Part shown: piece after piece, positions 27,206 to 36,300 of the stretch
How the letters are laid out: every line of letters starts with the position of its first letter
Numbering within the stretch: position 1 is the stretch's first letter
Position numbers and translations under genes: made by a program
The notes under the pieces: generated by a model
The model's input: the letters and a program-made list of their open reading frames with translations, nothing else
What the model was told of the DNA's origin: nothing
Databases searched by the model: none
DNA from: Waterburya sp.
Lineage (GTDB): Bacteria > Cyanobacteriota > Cyanobacteriia > Cyanobacteriales > Xenococcaceae
NCBI GenBank assembly: GCA_965217895.1
Contig: CBDCJV010000002.1
Coordinates: 4,096,001-4,160,000 of the forward strand
Direction: 5' to 3'
Length of the DNA: 64,000 nucleotides

Positions 27206-30200
27206 CTATCTGCGTGCTAACAAGGCTGCTACTGTATCAATTAATTCTTGTGGCTGAACGGGTTTTCCCAGATAGTCTGTTGCACCTAATCGTTTAGCTT
27301 CTTGCTTATGGCGATCGCCTGTACGCGAAGTTGCCATAATTACTGGCGTATTTTTAAAAGCGGGCTGGGCGCGGACTTTTGCTAATAGTTCAAAGCCATT
27401 GAGTCGAGGCATTTCCACATCGGAAACAATCAAATCGATTCTGCCTGTATATTGTTCTGTTTGCTCTAACGCTTCTTGTCCATCACGGCATACAATTACT
27501 TTGTAACCAACAGCAGTTAATATTTTATCCAACATTTTTCTCGTAGCAATAGAATCCTCGGCAATTAAGATAGTAGAGGTGTTGCTGGCTTGAGTAACGG
27601 ATTTTGCTTTGAGTGAACCTGTGGTAACAGCACTTTGCTCCAAGCCTTGAGGCAGAATTACGGGAATTACTTCTCCTGAGCCTAGTACAGTACAGCCTAC
27701 CATATAAGCTGGTACGGGAATAGTTTCATCAAAAGGTTTAATAATCAATTTTTCTTCTTTGACAATGGCATCTACCACAATTGTCACAGGTTCAAAGGCT
27801 GTTTCTAAAACGATCGCAACTTTCTCTAAGCTCAGTTGAAAAGGTTCTCTGGGACAGGGAAACAGATTAGAGGCAGAAGTTAAGGTAACAACTCGATTGT
27901 GCCAATTGATATATTGTTTCCGCTCATCGGTAAAGTCCAATTCCCGATAGGGCAGTATTTCTAAAACGCTAGTGTGAGGAAAAGCTATAATTTGATTCTG
28001 TAGCTGAACCAGTAACAAAGACTGTAGGCTGAGGTTTAAAGGTAAGGTGATTGTAAACGTCGTGCCTAAACCAGCATCAGTTTGGATCTGTAATTGACCT
28101 TTCAATTGACGAATTAAATTGAGGACAATATCTAGCCCCATACCTCGACCAGAAATATCACTAACTTTGGCTGCGGTAGAAAAATCAGGCTCAAAAATCC
28201 AGTTTAAAATTTCTCCTGGCTGAAAGTCTTTAATTGATTTTTCGGGAGGACAAATTCCTCTCTCTACTGCACGATTGTAGACTTTTTCAATACTAATTCC
28301 TCCTCCATCATCTTTGATCGTAATTACTAAGCTATTTCTTTGTAGCTTGGAAGTTAACTGTATAATTGCCGTTTCTGGTTTCTTAGCAGCAAGACGCTCG
28401 TATTTGGACTCGATACCATGATCGAAAGCGTTATTGAGCAGATGAGTTAAGGGAGTTTGTAGCTGTTCGAGTAATATTTGATCGACAGGAGTATTTTTTC
28501 CTTCAATTTTTAAATCAACTAGCTTATCAAATCGTTGACTTAAGCCAATAATTTGGGGAACAAACCTTTTAGCTAACAAATCAAAAGGAACTAGTCGTGA
28601 ATCAGTAACTTCAGAATATAGGTTGTCTAGATTATTGCGAGTTTGTTCAATATCTTCAGCAAACTCTCGCTCGACAAAATCAATGTCAGTGCGAGTTTCT
28701 TGGATCTGGAGCATTAATTCTTGAAACAATTGCAGGCTACTGTGTAAATCTGTGTAGCGATCCATTTCCAAAGAATCGAAGCCTTCGTTAGCTTTTTGAG
28801 CATTACCTATGGTTGGGGATACATCACCAGAACCAATTGCCAGGCGATCGTATAAATTCTGAATTTGCTCTCGAATCGGTTCAAACTGACGGGTCAGCGA
28901 TCGCAAGCGACGATTTGCTTGGTTTAACTGTTGTTGTTGGCGACCAAAACGAGAGTAGGTCAAAATCAACTCCTCTACGTTGTTGGTCATGTCCTGTAGT
29001 CTTTCTAAGGGAATTTTTAGCTGATTAGCAGCAGGCTTTTTAGATTCTTCTGCTACTTTGGTAATCATTTTAGCTGCGGACACCTCAGCAGGGGCAAACA
29101 TTACGGTAGCTGGTGCGGCCTCATCCTCTTCATCTTCAGAGCCAAAAAATCCTGCTTCATCTAGTTCCTCATTTTCGTCTAATTCCTGCTCTACATCTTC
29201 GCTATATAATTCTTCTGCATCTTCTTCACTATCAATCAATGCCTGCTCATTAACCCCTGTCAAATTCTCTAAATAAGAATCGCGCCGTTGACGAATCTGC
29301 TGGGCTAATTCCTGTACTGTTAATAAAGCTTCTAGAGGATCGGCTTCAGCTATCAGCGTGCCGATTTCTGATACCGCTTCAATTAACCAAGGCAAGGATA
29401 AAGTTTCCCCAAAAAAAGTACATTCATCCCCAAAGCCAGTCACCGCCTCATTGATAACTTCTTCTGGCGTATCTAAAGCTAAGTCTAAGATCCCTTGGCA
29501 TAAGTCTTCTAAATCCTGATTAAGAGTGTTGGCGACAAATTCATAGTTATTTGCTGTTTCTGGTTCAGACTCTTGATTAACATCAATATTGCTGAGATAA
29601 TCTGCAATCTCAGTTCTTAGCTGGGTAATAATTTCTTTGGTTAGTAACAATGCTTCAACCGCATCCGATTCTTGTAGAGTCTCGGTAATTGGTGCAGCAA
29701 CTTCTCCTAACCAGGATAAATCCAGAGTTTCTGCCAAGAACGTACATTCATCAGCAAATCCTGACAAAAGAGACTCAATAACTTCTTCGGGGGTATCTAG
29801 CTCTAATTCTTCAATAACCACAAAGCTATTTTCTAAGTCTACGGTCAAGGTACTGTAAACCAGGGCATCTTGGCTACTATTGTCGTCACTTTCCCCAGTA
29901 GAATATTCAGAATATTCCTGGGTATCTGAACTAAAGCCGACCAAAGACTCTAGAGCCGTAATTAATTCAGGATTGGCGATCGCATTATCTACCGTGCGAG
30001 CCTGACTTAAAATATAGCCTACTTCGTCAATACTTTTTTCTACTAACGCCCAAGCCAAATCTAGTTCGGCAATTTTTCCTTCCTGAATCCCTAGCATCAC
30101 GTCTTCTAATTTATGAGCTAAGTTTTGCAGGCTAGTCAAACAAGCTAAACCTGCTCCCCCTTTAAGAGAATGGGCAGCCCGCAATAAATCAGTAAAATTA

Positions 30201-30328
30201 GGATCGGCACGATCTTGTAAACCTTGTTCGAGCATCTGAAGATATTCGGGAGCATCTTCATCTAAAAAGCACTGGCGGGCTTCGGCGGTAATAGCGGCGA
30301 GAATTTCAGGGTCTAACTGGGAACTCAT
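27206..30328 (-). CDS. cheA: CheA-like hybrid kinase (Hpt-HATPase-CheW-REC)
   Basis: RAAHSLKG, HLLNNAFDHG, DDGGGI, SGRGMGLD, C-terminal receiver. Confidence 0.93.
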   Translation of the reverse strand: MSSQLDPEILAAITAEARQCFLDEDAPEYLQMLEQGLQDRADPNFTDLLRAAHSLKGGAGLACLTSLQNLAHKLEDVMLGIQEGKIAELDLAWALVEKSIDEVGYILSQARTVDNAIANPELITALESLVGFSSDTQEYSEYSTGESDDNSSQDALVYSTLTVDLENSFVVIEELELDTPEEVIESLLSGFADECTFLAETLDLSWLGEVAAPITETLQESDAVEALLLTKEIITQLRTEIADYLSNIDVNQESEPETANNYEFVANTLNQDLEDLCQGILDLALDTPEEVINEAVTGFGDECTFFGETLSLPWLIEAVSEIGTLIAEADPLEALLTVQELAQQIRQRRDSYLENLTGVNEQALIDSEEDAEELYSEDVEQELDENEELDEAGFFGSEDEEDEAAPATVMFAPAEVSAAKMITKVAEESKKPAANQLKIPLERLQDMTNNVEELILTYSRFGRQQQQLNQANRRLRSLTRQFEPIREQIQNLYDRLAIGSGDVSPTIGNAQKANEGFDSLEMDRYTDLHSSLQLFQELMLQIQETRTDIDFVEREFAEDIEQTRNNLDNLYSEVTDSRLVPFDLLAKRFVPQIIGLSQRFDKLVDLKIEGKNTPVDQILLEQLQTPLTHLLNNAFDHGIESKYERLAAKKPETAIIQLTSKLQRNSLVITIKDDGGGISIEKVYNRAVERGICPPEKSIKDFQPGEILNWIFEPDFSTAAKVSDISGRGMGLDIVLNLIRQLKGQLQIQTDAGLGTTFTITLPLNLSLQSLLLVQLQNQIIAFPHTSVLEILPYRELDFTDERKQYINWHNRVVTLTSASNLFPCPREPFQLSLEKVAIVLETAFEPVTIVVDAIVKEEKLIIKPFDETIPVPAYMVGCTVLGSGEVIPVILPQGLEQSAVTTGSLKAKSVTQASNTSTILIAEDSIATRKMLDKILTAVGYKVIVCRDGQEALEQTEQYTGRIDLIVSDVEMPRLNGFELLAKVRAQPAFKNTPVIMATSRTGDRHKQEAKRLGATDYLGKPVQPQELIDTVAALLARR

Positions 30329-30405
30329 GTTGGATAAGACTGCGCCTTGGTAAGATTAGTTAGGTAATAAAAAGTTTGTTTAAAGCTATGAAGCTTTTCT
30401 TAAGC

Positions 30406-32076
30406 TTAAAGTTTAAATTGCGATATCGACGATTGGAGAGTTTCTGCTTCTTGAACCAGAGTTTTCAGTGATTTCACCACGTTTTGGGCTTCAGTGGAAT
30501 TAGTTTTTGCTACTAGAGCAATACCATTAATTTTTTCATTGACCTGCTTGGAATTATCAGTTTGCTTTGTGGTGTTGGTAGAAATTGATTTTAAATAATC
30601 ATCAATTTGTTGACTAGTGTTCGCCAAACTTTGAAGGTTAAGTTTGGTCATGCGTACTAGTTCACTACCGTTTACTACTTCTGAGGTGCTAGTTTCCATC
30701 CCTTGCAGTACCGAAGTGGTATCTTGCTGAATTGCCGTCACTAGTTGTTGAATATCCTTGGTTGATTCGGTAATTCGATCTGCCAGACGACGGACTTCTT
30801 CGGCAACAATTCTAAATCCTTCTCCGTGTTCCCCTGCCCGCGCTGCCTCAACTGAAGCGTTAAAAGCCAGTAAGTTTGTTTTCTCAGAAATACCTGAAAT
30901 AATTTCTACAATTTGGGCAATTTCTTGAGAAGATTCTGCAAGCTGCTTTACTTTTTTCGAGGTATTGGCAACGGTAGTCCGAATTTTTTCGATACTGTGA
31001 ACCGTTGCGTCCATCGCTAAATCCCCTTCTTTAGCTTGAATTGAACCATTACGGGCAATTTTAGCAGCCTCTTGAGCATAGTCAGCAATTGTTTTTACCG
31101 ATTGATTAATTTCGTCGATACTGCTTAACGCCTGCTCGATTTCTGCTGCTTGAATCAGGGCAGATTCTGAAAGCTGTCGTACCGAACCTTCCCCAGCTAG
31201 AGACAATTGACCGACATCGGCAGATACAGTTTGAACTTTTTGCAGTAATCCCTGTAATTTTTTGAGAGTCGAGTTAAAGGCATCAGCAATTGAGCCGACT
31301 GCACCATCACTCATAGCTGCTCTAACGGTTAAATCTCCTCTTTGCGCTCCCTCTACGTCCATCAGCAGACTCATTACCCCTTGTTGTAGAGTTTCTCTTT
31401 GTTGCTGCTGATTTTTAGCTTCTCGCTCTTGAGTATAAAGCAAATCTTGAATCTGTCCTGCCATTTTGTTGATGTTAGAGCTTAAATTAGCTAATTCATC
31501 CTGTCCAGTAATAGGTATACGAACATCAAATTTCCCTTTGCCTATTTCGTCAATGGCATCACTAGCTTCTAGAAGAGGTTTAGTGATTTTGGTTGCGAGG
31601 GCTGAGGCGACTAAACCGACTAAAGCTATCAAGACAGCACTACTTAGTCCCAAAGTTAAGCCTAAGTTTTTTTGAACTGTGGACTTTTCCTCTTGTGTCA
31701 TTTTTTCTGGCAATGCCTGATTAACATAGTAATAGGCTGTTGAACCAATGGTAACAGTTGGTATGATACTCAGGAAAAATACCATTAACGGGACTTTGAG
31801 TTTTAAACTTAGATTCTGCCCAAACCAACCTTGAGAATCGGTTGGAATAACATGAAATTCTTTTGTCAGCAAAGATGGTTTGGATTTTTGCAAATTAGCC
31901 AACGCTTCCCTGGCGACATTACCGTAATTACCATTGGGATCTAGGACGGCAATTTCTTGGTAAATAGCGATCGCTTTTTCTATTTCTCCCGTACTTTCCA
32001 AGGTATTAGCCTCAACAATTTTACCGACAATATCATCGCTAATATTTTCAAAGGGTTTTAATTCCGAATCAGACAT
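30406..32076 (-). CDS. Methyl-accepting chemotaxis protein (2 TM, HAMP)
   Basis: TNLLAFNASVEAARAGEHGEGFRIVAEEVRRLA; HAMP motif GQDELANLS. Confidence 0.93.
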   Translation of the reverse strand: MSDSELKPFENISDDIVGKIVEANTLESTGEIEKAIAIYQEIAVLDPNGNYGNVAREALANLQKSKPSLLTKEFHVIPTDSQGWFGQNLSLKLKVPLMVFFLSIIPTVTIGSTAYYYVNQALPEKMTQEEKSTVQKNLGLTLGLSSAVLIALVGLVASALATKITKPLLEASDAIDEIGKGKFDVRIPITGQDELANLSSNINKMAGQIQDLLYTQEREAKNQQQQRETLQQGVMSLLMDVEGAQRGDLTVRAAMSDGAVGSIADAFNSTLKKLQGLLQKVQTVSADVGQLSLAGEGSVRQLSESALIQAAEIEQALSSIDEINQSVKTIADYAQEAAKIARNGSIQAKEGDLAMDATVHSIEKIRTTVANTSKKVKQLAESSQEIAQIVEIISGISEKTNLLAFNASVEAARAGEHGEGFRIVAEEVRRLADRITESTKDIQQLVTAIQQDTTSVLQGMETSTSEVVNGSELVRMTKLNLQSLANTSQQIDDYLKSISTNTTKQTDNSKQVNEKINGIALVAKTNSTEAQNVVKSLKTLVQEAETLQSSISQFKL

Positions 32077-32135
32077 AGTATTTTTCCTAGTAATTAAAAT
32101 ATATAGTTCGACCAACGTTTACAGCTTTACTGTAA

Positions 32136-32615
32136 TTAGGCAGACACCAAACTTGATTGTTGATGTAGCTGCTGCAATAGATTGGCAGGGTTTAAAATAT
32201 AAGTGTTTTTAGTTTCTGTAATGACACTGGCAGAACAACAGCTTTTTAAGTTAGATGATATGTTCTCGGAGATTTCTTCATGTTGAGCCTTTAAAGAGGT
32301 AATGCCGATTAGCTGCTGCGTTACTAATGCTATCTGTCTTGAGCTTTTGGCTGGATCGTGCTTGAGAACTACAGCCGTTAGCTTTCTGGTCAACTTGTCT
32401 TGCTTATTAGCTAAATGAAAATAGCGATCGCTATCTAAAACCCAAAGCAAAGAACCTTTAAAATTTACTACCCCATACCAAAAAGCAGCTACCCCTGGAA
32501 CTGGGCAGATATTATTTACTTCTAACTGTATTACCGCGCCCATATTTGCTAAGGGAATTCCTAGGTTTATTTTTGGGGCTAACTGAACGCTAAAATATTC
32601 TTGATTCATCAACAC
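32136..32615 (-). CDS. cheW: CheW-like adaptor
   Basis: ICPVPGV...GVVNFKGSLLWVLD; operon position. Confidence 0.85.
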   Translation of the reverse strand: MLMNQEYFSVQLAPKINLGIPLANMGAVIQLEVNNICPVPGVAAFWYGVVNFKGSLLWVLDSDRYFHLANKQDKLTRKLTAVVLKHDPAKSSRQIALVTQQLIGITSLKAQHEEISENISSNLKSCCSASVITETKNTYILNPANLLQQLHQQSSLVSA

Positions 32616-32665
32616 AAAGTAAATTTAAATCTACCTACACACACACAAAGTAAAACAAGTCTGCT

Positions 32666-33031
32666 TTAGCTAGCAAACTGATTCACTTTATCAACTAAAT
32701 TTTGGGGAATATAAGGTTTGGTAATATATTCATTTCCACCTTGACGCATTGCCCAAAAGCGATCAAATTCTTCAGCTTTAGAGCTACAAAATAAGATGGG
32801 AATCTCTTTCCATTCATCACGTTCTCTAATTTTGCGACAAAGATCTAAGCCACTTTCGCCTGGCATAACAATGTCCAACAGAATCAAATTAGGACTAGAA
32901 TTATTGTTGAGCCATTCCCAAGCTGCTTCTGCACTCGCGGCAACAGCAACGTTAAAACCAGCATGAGACAACAAAGCAGAACTCATTTGTCTTTCAGCGT
33001 GGGTATCTTCAACAATTAATATGGTTTTCAT
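32666..33031 (-). CDS. CheY-like response regulator
   Basis: LIVED, LLDIVMPG, FDRFWAMRQG..YITKP. Confidence 0.92.
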   Translation of the reverse strand: MKTILIVEDTHAERQMSSALLSHAGFNVAVAASAEAAWEWLNNNSSPNLILLDIVMPGESGLDLCRKIRERDEWKEIPILFCSSKAEEFDRFWAMRQGGNEYITKPYIPQNLVDKVNQFAS

Positions 33032-33136
33032 AATATTTAGGTGATTTTTTGCAGGTTATGTAAAAGATTGGTAATTGGGCTGATATTATAATTCCCAAAA
33101 TAATGCTTGAAATATCATTGAACATTGAACATTGAA

Positions 33137-33199
33137 CATTGCGAGACAAAACCGTTGCGAGGGTTCCCCCCGTTGAGATTATTGTCGAGGGTGAACATT
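33137..33199 (-). repeat. ~60-bp dispersed hairpin element within a CATTGAA heptamer run
   Basis: Reverse complement nearly identical to 20956-21018. Confidence 0.8.
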
Positions 33200-33265
33200 A
33201 AACATTTCATTAGAAGTAGGCAGTTAAGACAATTTTCTTTAACTACTAACTACTAACTACTAACT

Positions 33266-34477
33266 TCATTGAACGACAGGCACAACGGATTTTTCTAAAG
33301 CTTTAGCTAACTGAATTAATTTGTTGGGGTCACAAGGCTTGGTTAAATAATCGGTTGCTCCAGCTAACTTAGCTCTAACCCGATCGATCATTCCGTCTCT
33401 ACCAGTTAGCATAACGATGGGAATTTCCTTGAATTTTTGTGATTTTCTCAGGAGACTACATAAGTCATAGCCATTCATATTTGGCATATTGATATCCATA
33501 AAAATTACCGCAGGTTGATGAGGAGATAATTCTTTTAAGGCGGTAGTTGGATCGTGGATACTAATAACTCGATAATTAGCTGCTTCTAAAGTCATTTTCA
33601 CCTGTCTTTGTACTGTTTTACTGTCATCAATACAGACAATTAAAGTTTGAGCAGCATTACTATCAGCAGGGGATGATTGATTAATATTATCTTGTTGGCT
33701 AGCAGTTTGCTTTTGTATTTCATTAACAGCAGCTTCATCAAAAGGTAACAAATCAACAATTTTTTCTTCAATCGATTCTTCAAGATTTTTAGCTAAGAAA
33801 TAAGTATCGACTTTGGCTTTTGTTGCTATTTCATATAGATTGCTTTTGGCAACGAATAAGCTGACAAAAGAAGAAAGTTTTTGAGAGTTTGCCAAAATCT
33901 CAAATTCAGGTTTGGTGAACAGCACTTTCCATATTTTGTAGAACCTCAAGGCGTTTTTCTGATCTAGATATAGCCTGCTAATAGGAGAATGAAAATATTT
34001 TCTTACCTGTTGCCAAGCTTGTATCTGCTCTTTTACCTGCTCGTGAAAGTAGAGCTTTTTCAGTTCAAAACTAATAATTGATTTATTGATCCGTTTAGCT
34101 GGCTTTAATTCAATACTGGTGTTTTCGATGCTTAAAACATTAATCAACCCCTCTTTAACAAACATAAAAAGCAGCTTTTTGATATCTGCTTCTGACAATT
34201 GTTTATCAATTAGGTGTTGACACAACAAAGAATACTCGGAAACTTTTTGTCTCGATAAATCAGGAAAGCTAGAACCAAGCTTTAACTTTTGCCACAGATA
34301 ATTTAAGCGAGTTTGCTGTTCGACATTGGTACTTATATATTGAATTTTTCCCTGTAGCAGATATATATGCCAGCAAACAGAAGCATCCTTTGGTTCAGTT
34401 ACTTCAATACAACCAGACCAAGTTTCTTTTGATTTGGCATTGATAACTTGTAGAGGACTTTGAAGATGGTTGTTCAT
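33266..34477 (-). CDS. PatA-family response regulator (PATAN-like N-terminus plus REC)
   Basis: C-terminal CIDDS..MDINMP..LTGRDGMIDRVRAKLAGATDYLTKP; first gene of the chemosensory operon. Confidence 0.88.
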   Translation of the reverse strand: MNNHLQSPLQVINAKSKETWSGCIEVTEPKDASVCWHIYLLQGKIQYISTNVEQQTRLNYLWQKLKLGSSFPDLSRQKVSEYSLLCQHLIDKQLSEADIKKLLFMFVKEGLINVLSIENTSIELKPAKRINKSIISFELKKLYFHEQVKEQIQAWQQVRKYFHSPISRLYLDQKNALRFYKIWKVLFTKPEFEILANSQKLSSFVSLFVAKSNLYEIATKAKVDTYFLAKNLEESIEEKIVDLLPFDEAAVNEIQKQTASQQDNINQSSPADSNAAQTLIVCIDDSKTVQRQVKMTLEAANYRVISIHDPTTALKELSPHQPAVIFMDINMPNMNGYDLCSLLRKSQKFKEIPIVMLTGRDGMIDRVRAKLAGATDYLTKPCDPNKLIQLAKALEKSVVPVVQ

Positions 34478-34623: not shown

Positions 34624-36000
34624 ATGGCTTTAATTATTGCTGGCGATCGCTCTGGAGTAGGCAAAACTACTGTAACCCTTGCCATACTTGCCTTTCTTAC
34701 CCAACAGGGAAATAGAGTTCAGTCATTTAAGGTAGGGCCAGATTATATAGATCCGATGTTTCACTTCTCGGCTACAGGGATACCCTGTCGTAACTTAGAT
34801 CCTGTTTTGACTTCCCCTAAGTATGTTCAAGATTGTTTTAAGCGTCATACCCAAAATGCTAATTGTGTAGTGATAGAAGGGGTGATGGGGTTATTTGATG
34901 GTATCCGTAACCTGGATGGTACTGATTTCTTAAATGACTATGGTAGTACCGCTCATGTTGCTAGAATACTCAATCTGCCTGTAGCCTTGGTTTTAGACTG
35001 TTCTCGCTTATCTAGTTCGATCGCGGCGATCGCTTTTGGCTATGCTAACCTTGACCCAAAAGTAACTATTGCAGGAGTAATTCTCAATAAGGTAGCAAGC
35101 GATCGCCATTTAGAGCTACTAGAAACAGCACTAAAAACAATTGAGATGCCAATTTTAGGAGTCATTAGACGTAATGCGGAAATTACCCTTGGCGATCGAC
35201 ATTTGGGTCTTATTCCCTCCTCAGAAATACCTAATCTTAAAAGCGTTTTCTCTCAATTAGCTGAACTAGCCAAAACTTTAGACTGGGATAAACTATTCCC
35301 CTTACTCAAGTCGCCACCTCGCCACCTTGTCACCTCGCCATCTTGCCATCTCGCCACCTCGCAAAGTCCTGTAAGAATTGCGATCGCCAAAGATAAAGCC
35401 TTCAATTTTTATTACCAAGACAACTTAGATCTTCTAAAAGAACTAGGTGCAGAATTAACCTTTTGGAGTCCTTTAGAAGATCGCCACATTCCTAGTAACG
35501 TTCAAGGATTATACTTTGGCGGTGGATTTCCAGAGATTTTTGCTCAGCAGCTTGCAGAAAATAAGACAGTAAGACAAGAGTTAAAACAGATAATTCAAGC
35601 TGGCATACCTACCTACGCTGAGTGTGGCGGTTTAATGTATCTTTGCCAACAGTTAATCGATTTAAATGAAAAAGCTTGGTCAATGGTAGGCGTAATACCT
35701 AGTTGTGTCACCATGAAGGCAAAATTGACTTTGGGCTATCGGCAGGCAACGGCGTTACAAAATAGTTCTATTGCAACCAGCCAGCAAGTAGTTCGAGGAC
35801 ATGAGTTTCATCATTCTCAACTTACTGCTGTTTCCCCTACTCCTCAGTGGCAGTTAAAAGGTTTTCACAACTCTAGCCCTCAGCTTACAGAAGGTTGGAA
35901 CATTCAGCAGTTACACGCTTCTTATCTACATCTTCATTGGGGTGAATACAAATTTTTGGCGCAAAGATTTAGCCAACGTTGCCGAAATTATAAAATTTAG
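34624..36000 (+). CDS. cobB: Cobyrinate a,c-diamide synthase
   Basis: SGVGKTT, FKVGPDYIDP, IEGVMGLFDG, AFNFYY, YAECGGLMYL, GHEFH, SYLHLH. Confidence 0.93.
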   Translation: MALIIAGDRSGVGKTTVTLAILAFLTQQGNRVQSFKVGPDYIDPMFHFSATGIPCRNLDPVLTSPKYVQDCFKRHTQNANCVVIEGVMGLFDGIRNLDGTDFLNDYGSTAHVARILNLPVALVLDCSRLSSSIAAIAFGYANLDPKVTIAGVILNKVASDRHLELLETALKTIEMPILGVIRRNAEITLGDRHLGLIPSSEIPNLKSVFSQLAELAKTLDWDKLFPLLKSPPRHLVTSPSCHLATSQSPVRIAIAKDKAFNFYYQDNLDLLKELGAELTFWSPLEDRHIPSNVQGLYFGGGFPEIFAQQLAENKTVRQELKQIIQAGIPTYAECGGLMYLCQQLIDLNEKAWSMVGVIPSCVTMKAKLTLGYRQATALQNSSIATSQQVVRGHEFHHSQLTAVSPTPQWQLKGFHNSSPQLTEGWNIQQLHASYLHLHWGEYKFLAQRFSQRCRNYKI

Positions 36001-36049
36001 CTATATTAATTTGAGATACGAAATTTATTAATAACCATTTAGGGATACA

Positions 36050-36300
36050 GGAGGTGATGCCCATGACAGAACACAGTAGTAACATGGGTCTCCTAGTTGA
36101 TGATAGCCAGCTGCGCGCTGGGGCTGTTCTCTAAACAGTCGCATCTTTAGTTTCTGCGGAAACAGCTAGGTAGACATTGTTGGAGTTCCTTCCAGCAGTT
36201 AGGTTTCGACTAAGAGACCCTCTAGACCGCCCCTACAGGTAAGTAGCCATAGCAACGTTTGTTGTTAACCGTTATCGACCTGTGGGGGCGGATAGTTTTT
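36050..36300 (+). ncRNA. Candidate structured RNA containing a 23-aa ORF (36063-36134)
   Basis: GGAGGTGA RBS, ORF MTEHSSNMGLLVDDSQLRAGAVL, and a series of consecutive hairpins with G-U pairs on the + strand. Confidence 0.5.

Follow-up and report, generated by a model that had tools for sequence, protein, structure and literature searches.

Two descriptions of cyanobacterial RNAs come closest to the element reported here. Tan et al. (2018, PMC6091082) treated Sye_sRNA1 of S. elongatus UTEX 2973, TU475 of Synechocystis 6803 and TU2045 of PCC 6714 as one RNA and placed the transcription start site (TSS) of Sye_sRNA1 at a G located 337 nt before dcoH; the passages of that paper on the RNA do not mention a Shine-Dalgarno sequence (SD), an ORF or ribosome binding. 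For TU2045 a length of 251 nt was reported, its read count reaching 467,744 and an alternative start lying 28 nt further in (PMC5386190). The second description is that of ncl0160 (Mitschke 2011), which according to Brenes-Alvarez et al. (2016, PMC4734099) is widely conserved and has a ribosome binding site and an ORF of 23-25 aa in 83 homologues, starting with ATG or sometimes GTG and ending with TAA (47), TAG (34) or TGA (2). These authors took the RNA for a peptide gene. Their survey left out marine picocyanobacteria, in which a short form was found in the present study.

No functional study of Sye_sRNA1, TU475 or TU2045 was found in the literature searched, although one may exist under the name ncl0160; this name did not occur in the main text of the related papers checked. 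Searches on sll1501/alr4548, a cobyrinic acid sRNA, an RNA downstream of psbD, an anti-SD decoy and psbD2/somB did not reveal a functional study either, and searches with peptide and nucleotide motifs returned irrelevant papers only.

Identity and neighbourhood of the locus

The element lies in the window, i.e. the whole 64,000-nt stretch of Waterburya sp. DNA that was analysed. Judged by sequence it is this genome's copy of the Sye_sRNA1/TU475 family and not new: a stand-alone RNA gene of about 270 nt, the copy itself being ordinary. The initial annotation had considered the RNA undescribed, but it has been published as Sye_sRNA1/TU475/TU2045 (PMC6091082) and, probably, as ncl0160 (PMC4734099), so that both the RNA (Tan et al.) and its ORF (Brenes-Alvarez et al.) were already in print. 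The features of the element, in window coordinates, are as follows.

35979..36007, + strand: candidate sigma70-type promoter TTGCCG-17-TATATT, overlapping the end of cobB (1 found against about 1.2 expected by chance, and thus weak alone)
36034..36045, + strand: semi-conserved 5' leader motif ACCATTTAGGGA (consensus ACCGTTTAGG), from alignments
36049..36058, + strand: maximal SD AGGAGGTGAT, a 10-bp complement of the 16S 3' end
36063..36134, + strand: 23-codon ORF MTEHSSNMGLLVDDSQLRAGAVL plus stop codon; conservation covers the start, frame and stop and does not extend to the amino acids
36066..36085, + strand: unpaired linker, codons 2-8, with nucleotide motif AGUAGUA; its length shifts in steps of 3 only
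36086..36131, + strand: 5' arm of the rod (conserved fold), running from the final base of codon 8 through codon 23
36135..36182, + strand: variable apical domain of the rod with a GTTTC/GAAAC hairpin; its size in homologues ranges from next to nothing to over 150 nt
36183..36220, + strand: 3' arm of the rod, GAGTTCCTTCCAGCAG...GACCC, pairing with the ORF
36222..36300, + strand: terminator-like hairpin CTA-GA-CCGC...GCGG-A-TAG followed by a T-run; base conserved, top variable

Transcription presumably starts near 36014, and similar -10 words occur upstream of the homologues within the genus. A long stem before T-runs had been noticed earlier and was recovered (36227-36240 paired with 36278-36291, then T5); a simple terminator scan missed this hairpin.

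The link to Sye_sRNA1 was made through a homologue, L112, which a covariance model built from the window homologues matched over its full length (104.8 bits). The four published Sye_sRNA1 probe primers recur in L112 letter for letter, and the published TSS is found 7 nt downstream of TAGGAT, with GGAGG following after 21 nt and an ATG after exactly 337 nt; the agreement of primers and TSS establishes the family identity. Position downstream of psbD or cobB is given for Sye_sRNA1/TU475, and cobB precedes the element here. Common to both are the psbD/cobB synteny, a length of about 240-270 nt and a conserved structure, whereas the window copy, between cobB and hpnH, has a 23-codon ORF and the S. 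elongatus-type copy one of 17 codons. The link to ncl0160 is by description alone, and every feature stated for it in the text consulted fits (an ORF of 23-25 aa, the ribosome binding site, ATG or GTG starts and three stop codons). Among 117 complete ORFs compared here the stops were TAA in 60, TAG in 56 and TGA in 1.

Both neighbours, cobB and hpnH, had been named correctly in the initial annotation. hpnH is encoded on the same strand, 115 nt downstream, and a terminator separates the two. In 110 loci with long flanks, some of which end at contig ends, the upstream neighbour was cobB in 35 and psbD in 32, and on the downstream side lay dcoH (32 loci), cysK (24), a porin (23) and hpnH (5). The suggestion of a leader for hopanoid synthesis does not survive this comparison, in which the five hpnH-adjacent loci all belong to the element's own genus: the element is a free-standing gene and not an hpnH leader.

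That the RNA matches no known Rfam family was borne out by searches at gathering and E-value thresholds, which gave nothing real. The 6S RNA model (RF00013) has no match in the element, and the 6S gene of this genome sits at a different locus. PmgR1/Ncr0700, which is alike in size and abundance class and which we had presumed, wrongly, to be a neighbour of cobB, was rejected since its published sequence is without the SD, the ORF and the rod motifs. In the Synechocystis sRNA sequences of a published supplement (PMC6596454) no look-alike was seen by eye in the first part and no motif match in the whole file.

Two other features of the window were observed. The cobB gene contains, at 35310-35365, an in-frame low-complexity repeat of TCGCCAC-like units (peptide SPPRHLVTSPSCHLATS) in an inter-domain region, and the length of the protein varies from about 454 to 498 aa within the genus. 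On the - strand, 27206-34477 holds an ordinary-looking chemotaxis-type cluster, whose translations we take to be PatA-like and CheY-like regulators, CheW, MCP and CheA.

Distribution among cyanobacteria

The element is single-copy in its own genome, and sequence matches were found in 58 of 61 relatives across the order. With the core covariance model 123 of the 151 genomes of the class were matched, each with one copy except for one genome (G369) with two, L100 and L157, whose ORFs have 23 and 24 codons. In 21 genomes of non-photosynthetic classes this type of search gave no match below E = 0.001; weak matches in two of them (E above 0.003) were without the family architecture and were rejected. 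A pattern scan of the species collection found at least 119 loci, with no named non-cyanobacterium among the 80 matches listed; the short pattern GGAGGTGATGNNNATG alone gave chance matches inside genes and was discarded. Phages, plasmids and viral contigs yielded no match.

One family of small genomes (f36), presumably the picocyanobacteria, gave 0 of 11 with the first covariance model. Two weak matches in it proved to be a short form of the RNA, so that the absence was an artefact of the model. A DNA search with the short form detected it in 94 of 121 genomes of this family, one of them marginally, the misses being mainly genomes of 1.6-1.9 Mb. The short form has GGAGG 13 nt before GTG or ATG, a 17-codon frame and the GGGUC/GACCC helix, and psbD lies upstream in 14 of the 28 loci parsed. 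At the short-form loci L196:1480-1680 and L321-L350 the SD is spelled GGAGGAGGTG.

Near-complete genomes without a model match include G125 (closed, 3.8 Mb), G098 and G332. One genus (g77) gave 0 of 7 with the core model, and the smallest f36 genomes were also without a match. It is possible that these genomes represent true losses or further divergent forms.

The conserved fold

The initial annotation favoured the + strand, and so does the comparison with shuffled sequences (z of -6.15, against -2.54 for the - strand). It also proposed consecutive hairpins (CTGTT/AACAG, TGTTGGAG/TTCCAGCA and GGTTTC/GAGACC); these do occur in the element's own minimum free energy fold, which favours them over the rod by about 4 kcal/mol, but their conservation was not supported, as they were 64.7% paired over 100 homologues compared with 63.4% in shuffles. 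The conserved fold is instead a long-range rod of 30 pairs, formed by codons 8-23 with the 3' half of the RNA. With RNAalifold, 26 homologues gave the rod and the terminal stem, both sides changing in 18 of 48 pairs. Over 100 model-aligned homologues the rod was 97.2% paired, with 291 double-sided cells and double-sided changes in 25 of the 33 model pairs, far above shuffled and slid controls, in an alignment that was fitted to the rod structure and so favours it.

Shine-Dalgarno sequence and accessibility of the start

The SD had been called very strong and rare, which is correct: GGAGGTGA at 36050-36057 occurs nowhere else in the window, whichever strand is read. A 10-bp duplex of -17.7 kcal/mol forms between the SD and the 16S 3' end of this genome; pairing this strong occurs at 1 of 3458 long-ORF starts, where the genome median is -1.9 kcal/mol. 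GGAGG together with a start codon was found in 168 of 170 loci, with an offset of 13 nt in 159, and the two remaining loci still hold a 23-codon frame when inspected by eye. Individual deviations are L167, with a degenerate SD, L170, with a -1 frameshift giving 16 codons, and L131 and L168, in which the spacer from SD to start is 3 nt shorter.

Pairing of the SD and start with the ORF itself, as described in the initial annotation, is possible in most homologues (87% paired), but covariation does not back it, with 2 double-sided changes and no more than in shuffles. This helix and the base of the rod are in competition (0.59 versus 0.38 in the window copy), with the outcome favouring the rod in 102 of 150 homologues; a switch between the two may exist. 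Across homologues the SD is without a fixed partner. The description of the mRNA as translationally locked was not supported, because opening the SD costs a median of 4.6 kcal/mol (1.4 here) against the -17.7 gained with 16S. Net pairing of the SD with 16S was favourable in all 75 homologues scored (every second locus).

Selection on the reading frame

The small ORF at 36063-36134, encoding MTEHSSNMGLLVDDSQLRAGAVL, is present as predicted and conserved among homologues. Its length was 23 codons in 119 loci, 24 in 29, 17 in 13 and otherwise 16-27. In all but 2 of the 158 loci scored (8 were not scored) the ATG and codon 17 are 48, 51 or 54 nt apart, which keeps the frame; the paired 3' arm, unlike the in-frame ORF, varies in length by single bases. 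No stop codon occurred in codons 2-16 of 128 distinct indel-free ORF regions, which include kin and are not independent, while about 20 were expected from the column frequencies. A tree-based permutation pointed in the same direction, with 10-11 stops reconstructed, a count inflated by parsimony artefacts, compared with about 20 expected. TAA and TAG were exchanged about 21 times, and the start swaps between ATG and GTG.

The encoded amino acids behave differently along the peptide. The dN/dS ratio was about 1.0 across codons 2-17, 1.2 for the codons left unpaired, about 0.3 in codon 18 and about 0.5 in codons 19-23, the wobble-rich core helix; the pairwise value was 0.85 overall. Codon 18, which lies in an internal loop, became a stop in several lineages with the fold kept. 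The low values in codons 18-23 could reflect selection on the C-terminal xAGAVL rather than wobble pairing. The peptide belongs to no Pfam or NCBIfam family, and an exact-sequence search of the protein collection found none of 3 peptides. These comparisons indicate that the SD, start, frame and stop, and with them ribosome loading and passage, are selected and that the peptide sequence mostly is not. The dual-function sRNA of the initial annotation may still be the right reading, though codons 2-17 show no purifying selection.

Ribosome association and RNA ends

Published Grad-seq data for Synechocystis (PMC8136920) contain a row for sll1501, which falls in cluster 16 together with two rRNA rows and Sll1097, Sll1816 and Slr0469; 50S components are in cluster 17, fraction 18. 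In the rows compared, the sll1501 profile correlates with 16S at r = 0.89 and with 23S at r = 0.25, when the two cluster-16 rRNA rows are taken as 16S. Fractions 14-18 hold 57.6% of the sll1501 signal and about 2-10% of that of the other mRNA and sRNA rows compared; the neighbours of sll1501 and the other RNAs compared sediment light. By a rough fit about a quarter of the sll1501 signal sediments like free sRNA. The row is that of a gene and not of the sRNA itself, but in 6803 the sRNA copy overlaps at its 5' end with the sll1501 CDS, from which we infer that the row reports the sRNA and that the sRNA co-sediments with 30S. Sll1097, Sll1816 and Slr0469 are, we assume, 30S proteins. The subunits look dissociated in the gradient, and a perfect SD could therefore have annealed to 16S after lysis.

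Two sequencing runs of one sample (X1 and X2) gave a 250-letter contig whose ends overlap, closing to a 220-nt unit. This unit is identical to L063:1304-1523; it begins 7 nt ahead of GGAGG, ends at the terminator base and had no flanking cover. It may be a natural circle or an artefact of end-to-end ligation in the library. In three further studies, contigs of related sequence end 2-10 nt ahead of the SD, and others (X3, X7 and X14) extend further 5'; all these contigs are unstranded, and the -7 end comes from one sample. If the locus geometry of PCC 6714 equals that of L063, its alternative start would also lie near -7. In Bacilli, RNAs are stabilised by a strong SD even when no start codon is present (PMC3997798), and a bound 30S subunit would protect a 5' end lying immediately in front of such an SD.

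Discussion

We propose, with a probability of about one half, that the RNA from this free-standing Sye_sRNA1/TU475 gene has a ribosome-loading role and that its peptide is probably incidental, and we favour this model over a stabilised rod that binds protein or RNA and over an mRNA for a microprotein. The prediction is that the 10-bp SD captures 30S subunits, with the start region lying open. The footprint of the 30S subunit reaches about +16. The rod starts 24 nt downstream of the AUG, slightly past this footprint, so that 30S could bind without melting it. Elongation would need to unwind about 30 pairs, so that the RNA might stay mostly in a 30S-bound, 5'-protected state, the rod being opened only once initiation goes through. 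Such an RNA would buffer free 30S subunits or report initiation capacity.

The evidence also has to be read with other functions in mind. The SD and short ORF may be a stability device only, with the function residing in a rod or AGUAGUA linker that binds a protein or RNA; we consider this rather improbable, although it ranks next. The spacing of the 5' end relative to the SD is a known property of STAB-SD elements, and here a 5' end lies 7 nt before the SD in one sample. The effect of strong SDs in Bacilli (PMC3997798), rod nucleotides that are invariant beyond the needs of pairing, and the free-sRNA-like quarter of the Grad-seq signal, by the rough fit given above, would all suit a stabiliser. 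A pure stabiliser, however, has no need for conservation of the frame along the rod or of the stop at its tip, and the analysis identified no protein partner or target. That the RNA is the mRNA of a functional microprotein of 17-25 aa, with the rod tuning or stabilising it, is the reading of Brenes-Alvarez et al. (2016), and it follows in rank as an unlikely explanation. It agrees with the conserved start, frame and stop, with the nearly invariant G9, L17 and AGAVL and with the dN/dS of about 0.5 in codons 19-23, but not with a ratio of about 1 over codons 2-17, nor with radical swaps at paired positions (L/H/R, Q/L/R, D/E/G) and Ser codons that are almost always AGT. Moreover, the AGAVL tail is lost in several lineages, the picocyanobacteria-type short form has another C-terminus, and the peptide, besides lacking a Pfam or NCBIfam match, is unnamed in the main text of the small-protein papers searched.

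Much less probable are two readings in which the ORF would serve a toxin or a neighbouring gene. Type I toxin mRNAs combine a short ORF, a strong SD, long-range pairing and their own terminator, and the RNA resembles a structurally repressed mRNA of such a toxin-antitoxin locus in all four respects. We regard this as very unlikely, since the peptide does not qualify as a transmembrane helix (its best 17-residue stretch has a hydropathy of 0.53 here; the median is 0.80 for 133 peptides, 6 of which reach 1.6), the gene is single-copy, near-universal and chromosomal with an accessible SD, and plasmids, phages and viral contigs gave no match. A leader-peptide attenuator of hpnH in hopanoid synthesis is largely refuted and has hardly any probability left: it would suit the same-strand position 115 nt upstream, with a terminator between, but homologues occur as discrete RNAs of about 200-250 nt, the S. 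elongatus homologue having its own mapped TSS, and no conserved regulatory codon run is present.

In model cyanobacteria this family ranks with the most abundant RNAs other than rRNA, yet it is missing from Rfam. The question of its function is now testable, as selection appears to act on ribosome loading and the rod, not the peptide, and the gradient data point to 30S. mRNAs of photosynthetic bacteria have mostly weak SDs, judging by the median pairing of -1.9 kcal/mol in this genome. If it is true that the RNA holds or meters small subunits, it would represent a new translation control in these bacteria.

Two known systems serve as working analogies for the ribosome-loading model. STAB-SD leaders of the cryIIIA type likewise have a strong SD shielding the 5' end, but they are cis elements without an ORF. 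6S RNA is likewise an abundant, rod-shaped RNA that holds a core machine, but it binds RNA polymerase. It is conceivable, though we put this forward only tentatively and think it rather unlikely, that the family is a '6S RNA for the ribosome', a dedicated 30S-holding RNA kept back to the deepest oxygenic cyanobacterial branches. The RNA would then occupy the anti-Shine-Dalgarno tail of free 30S subunits and store or protect them, and it would be released by translation of a throw-away peptide that unzips its own rod.
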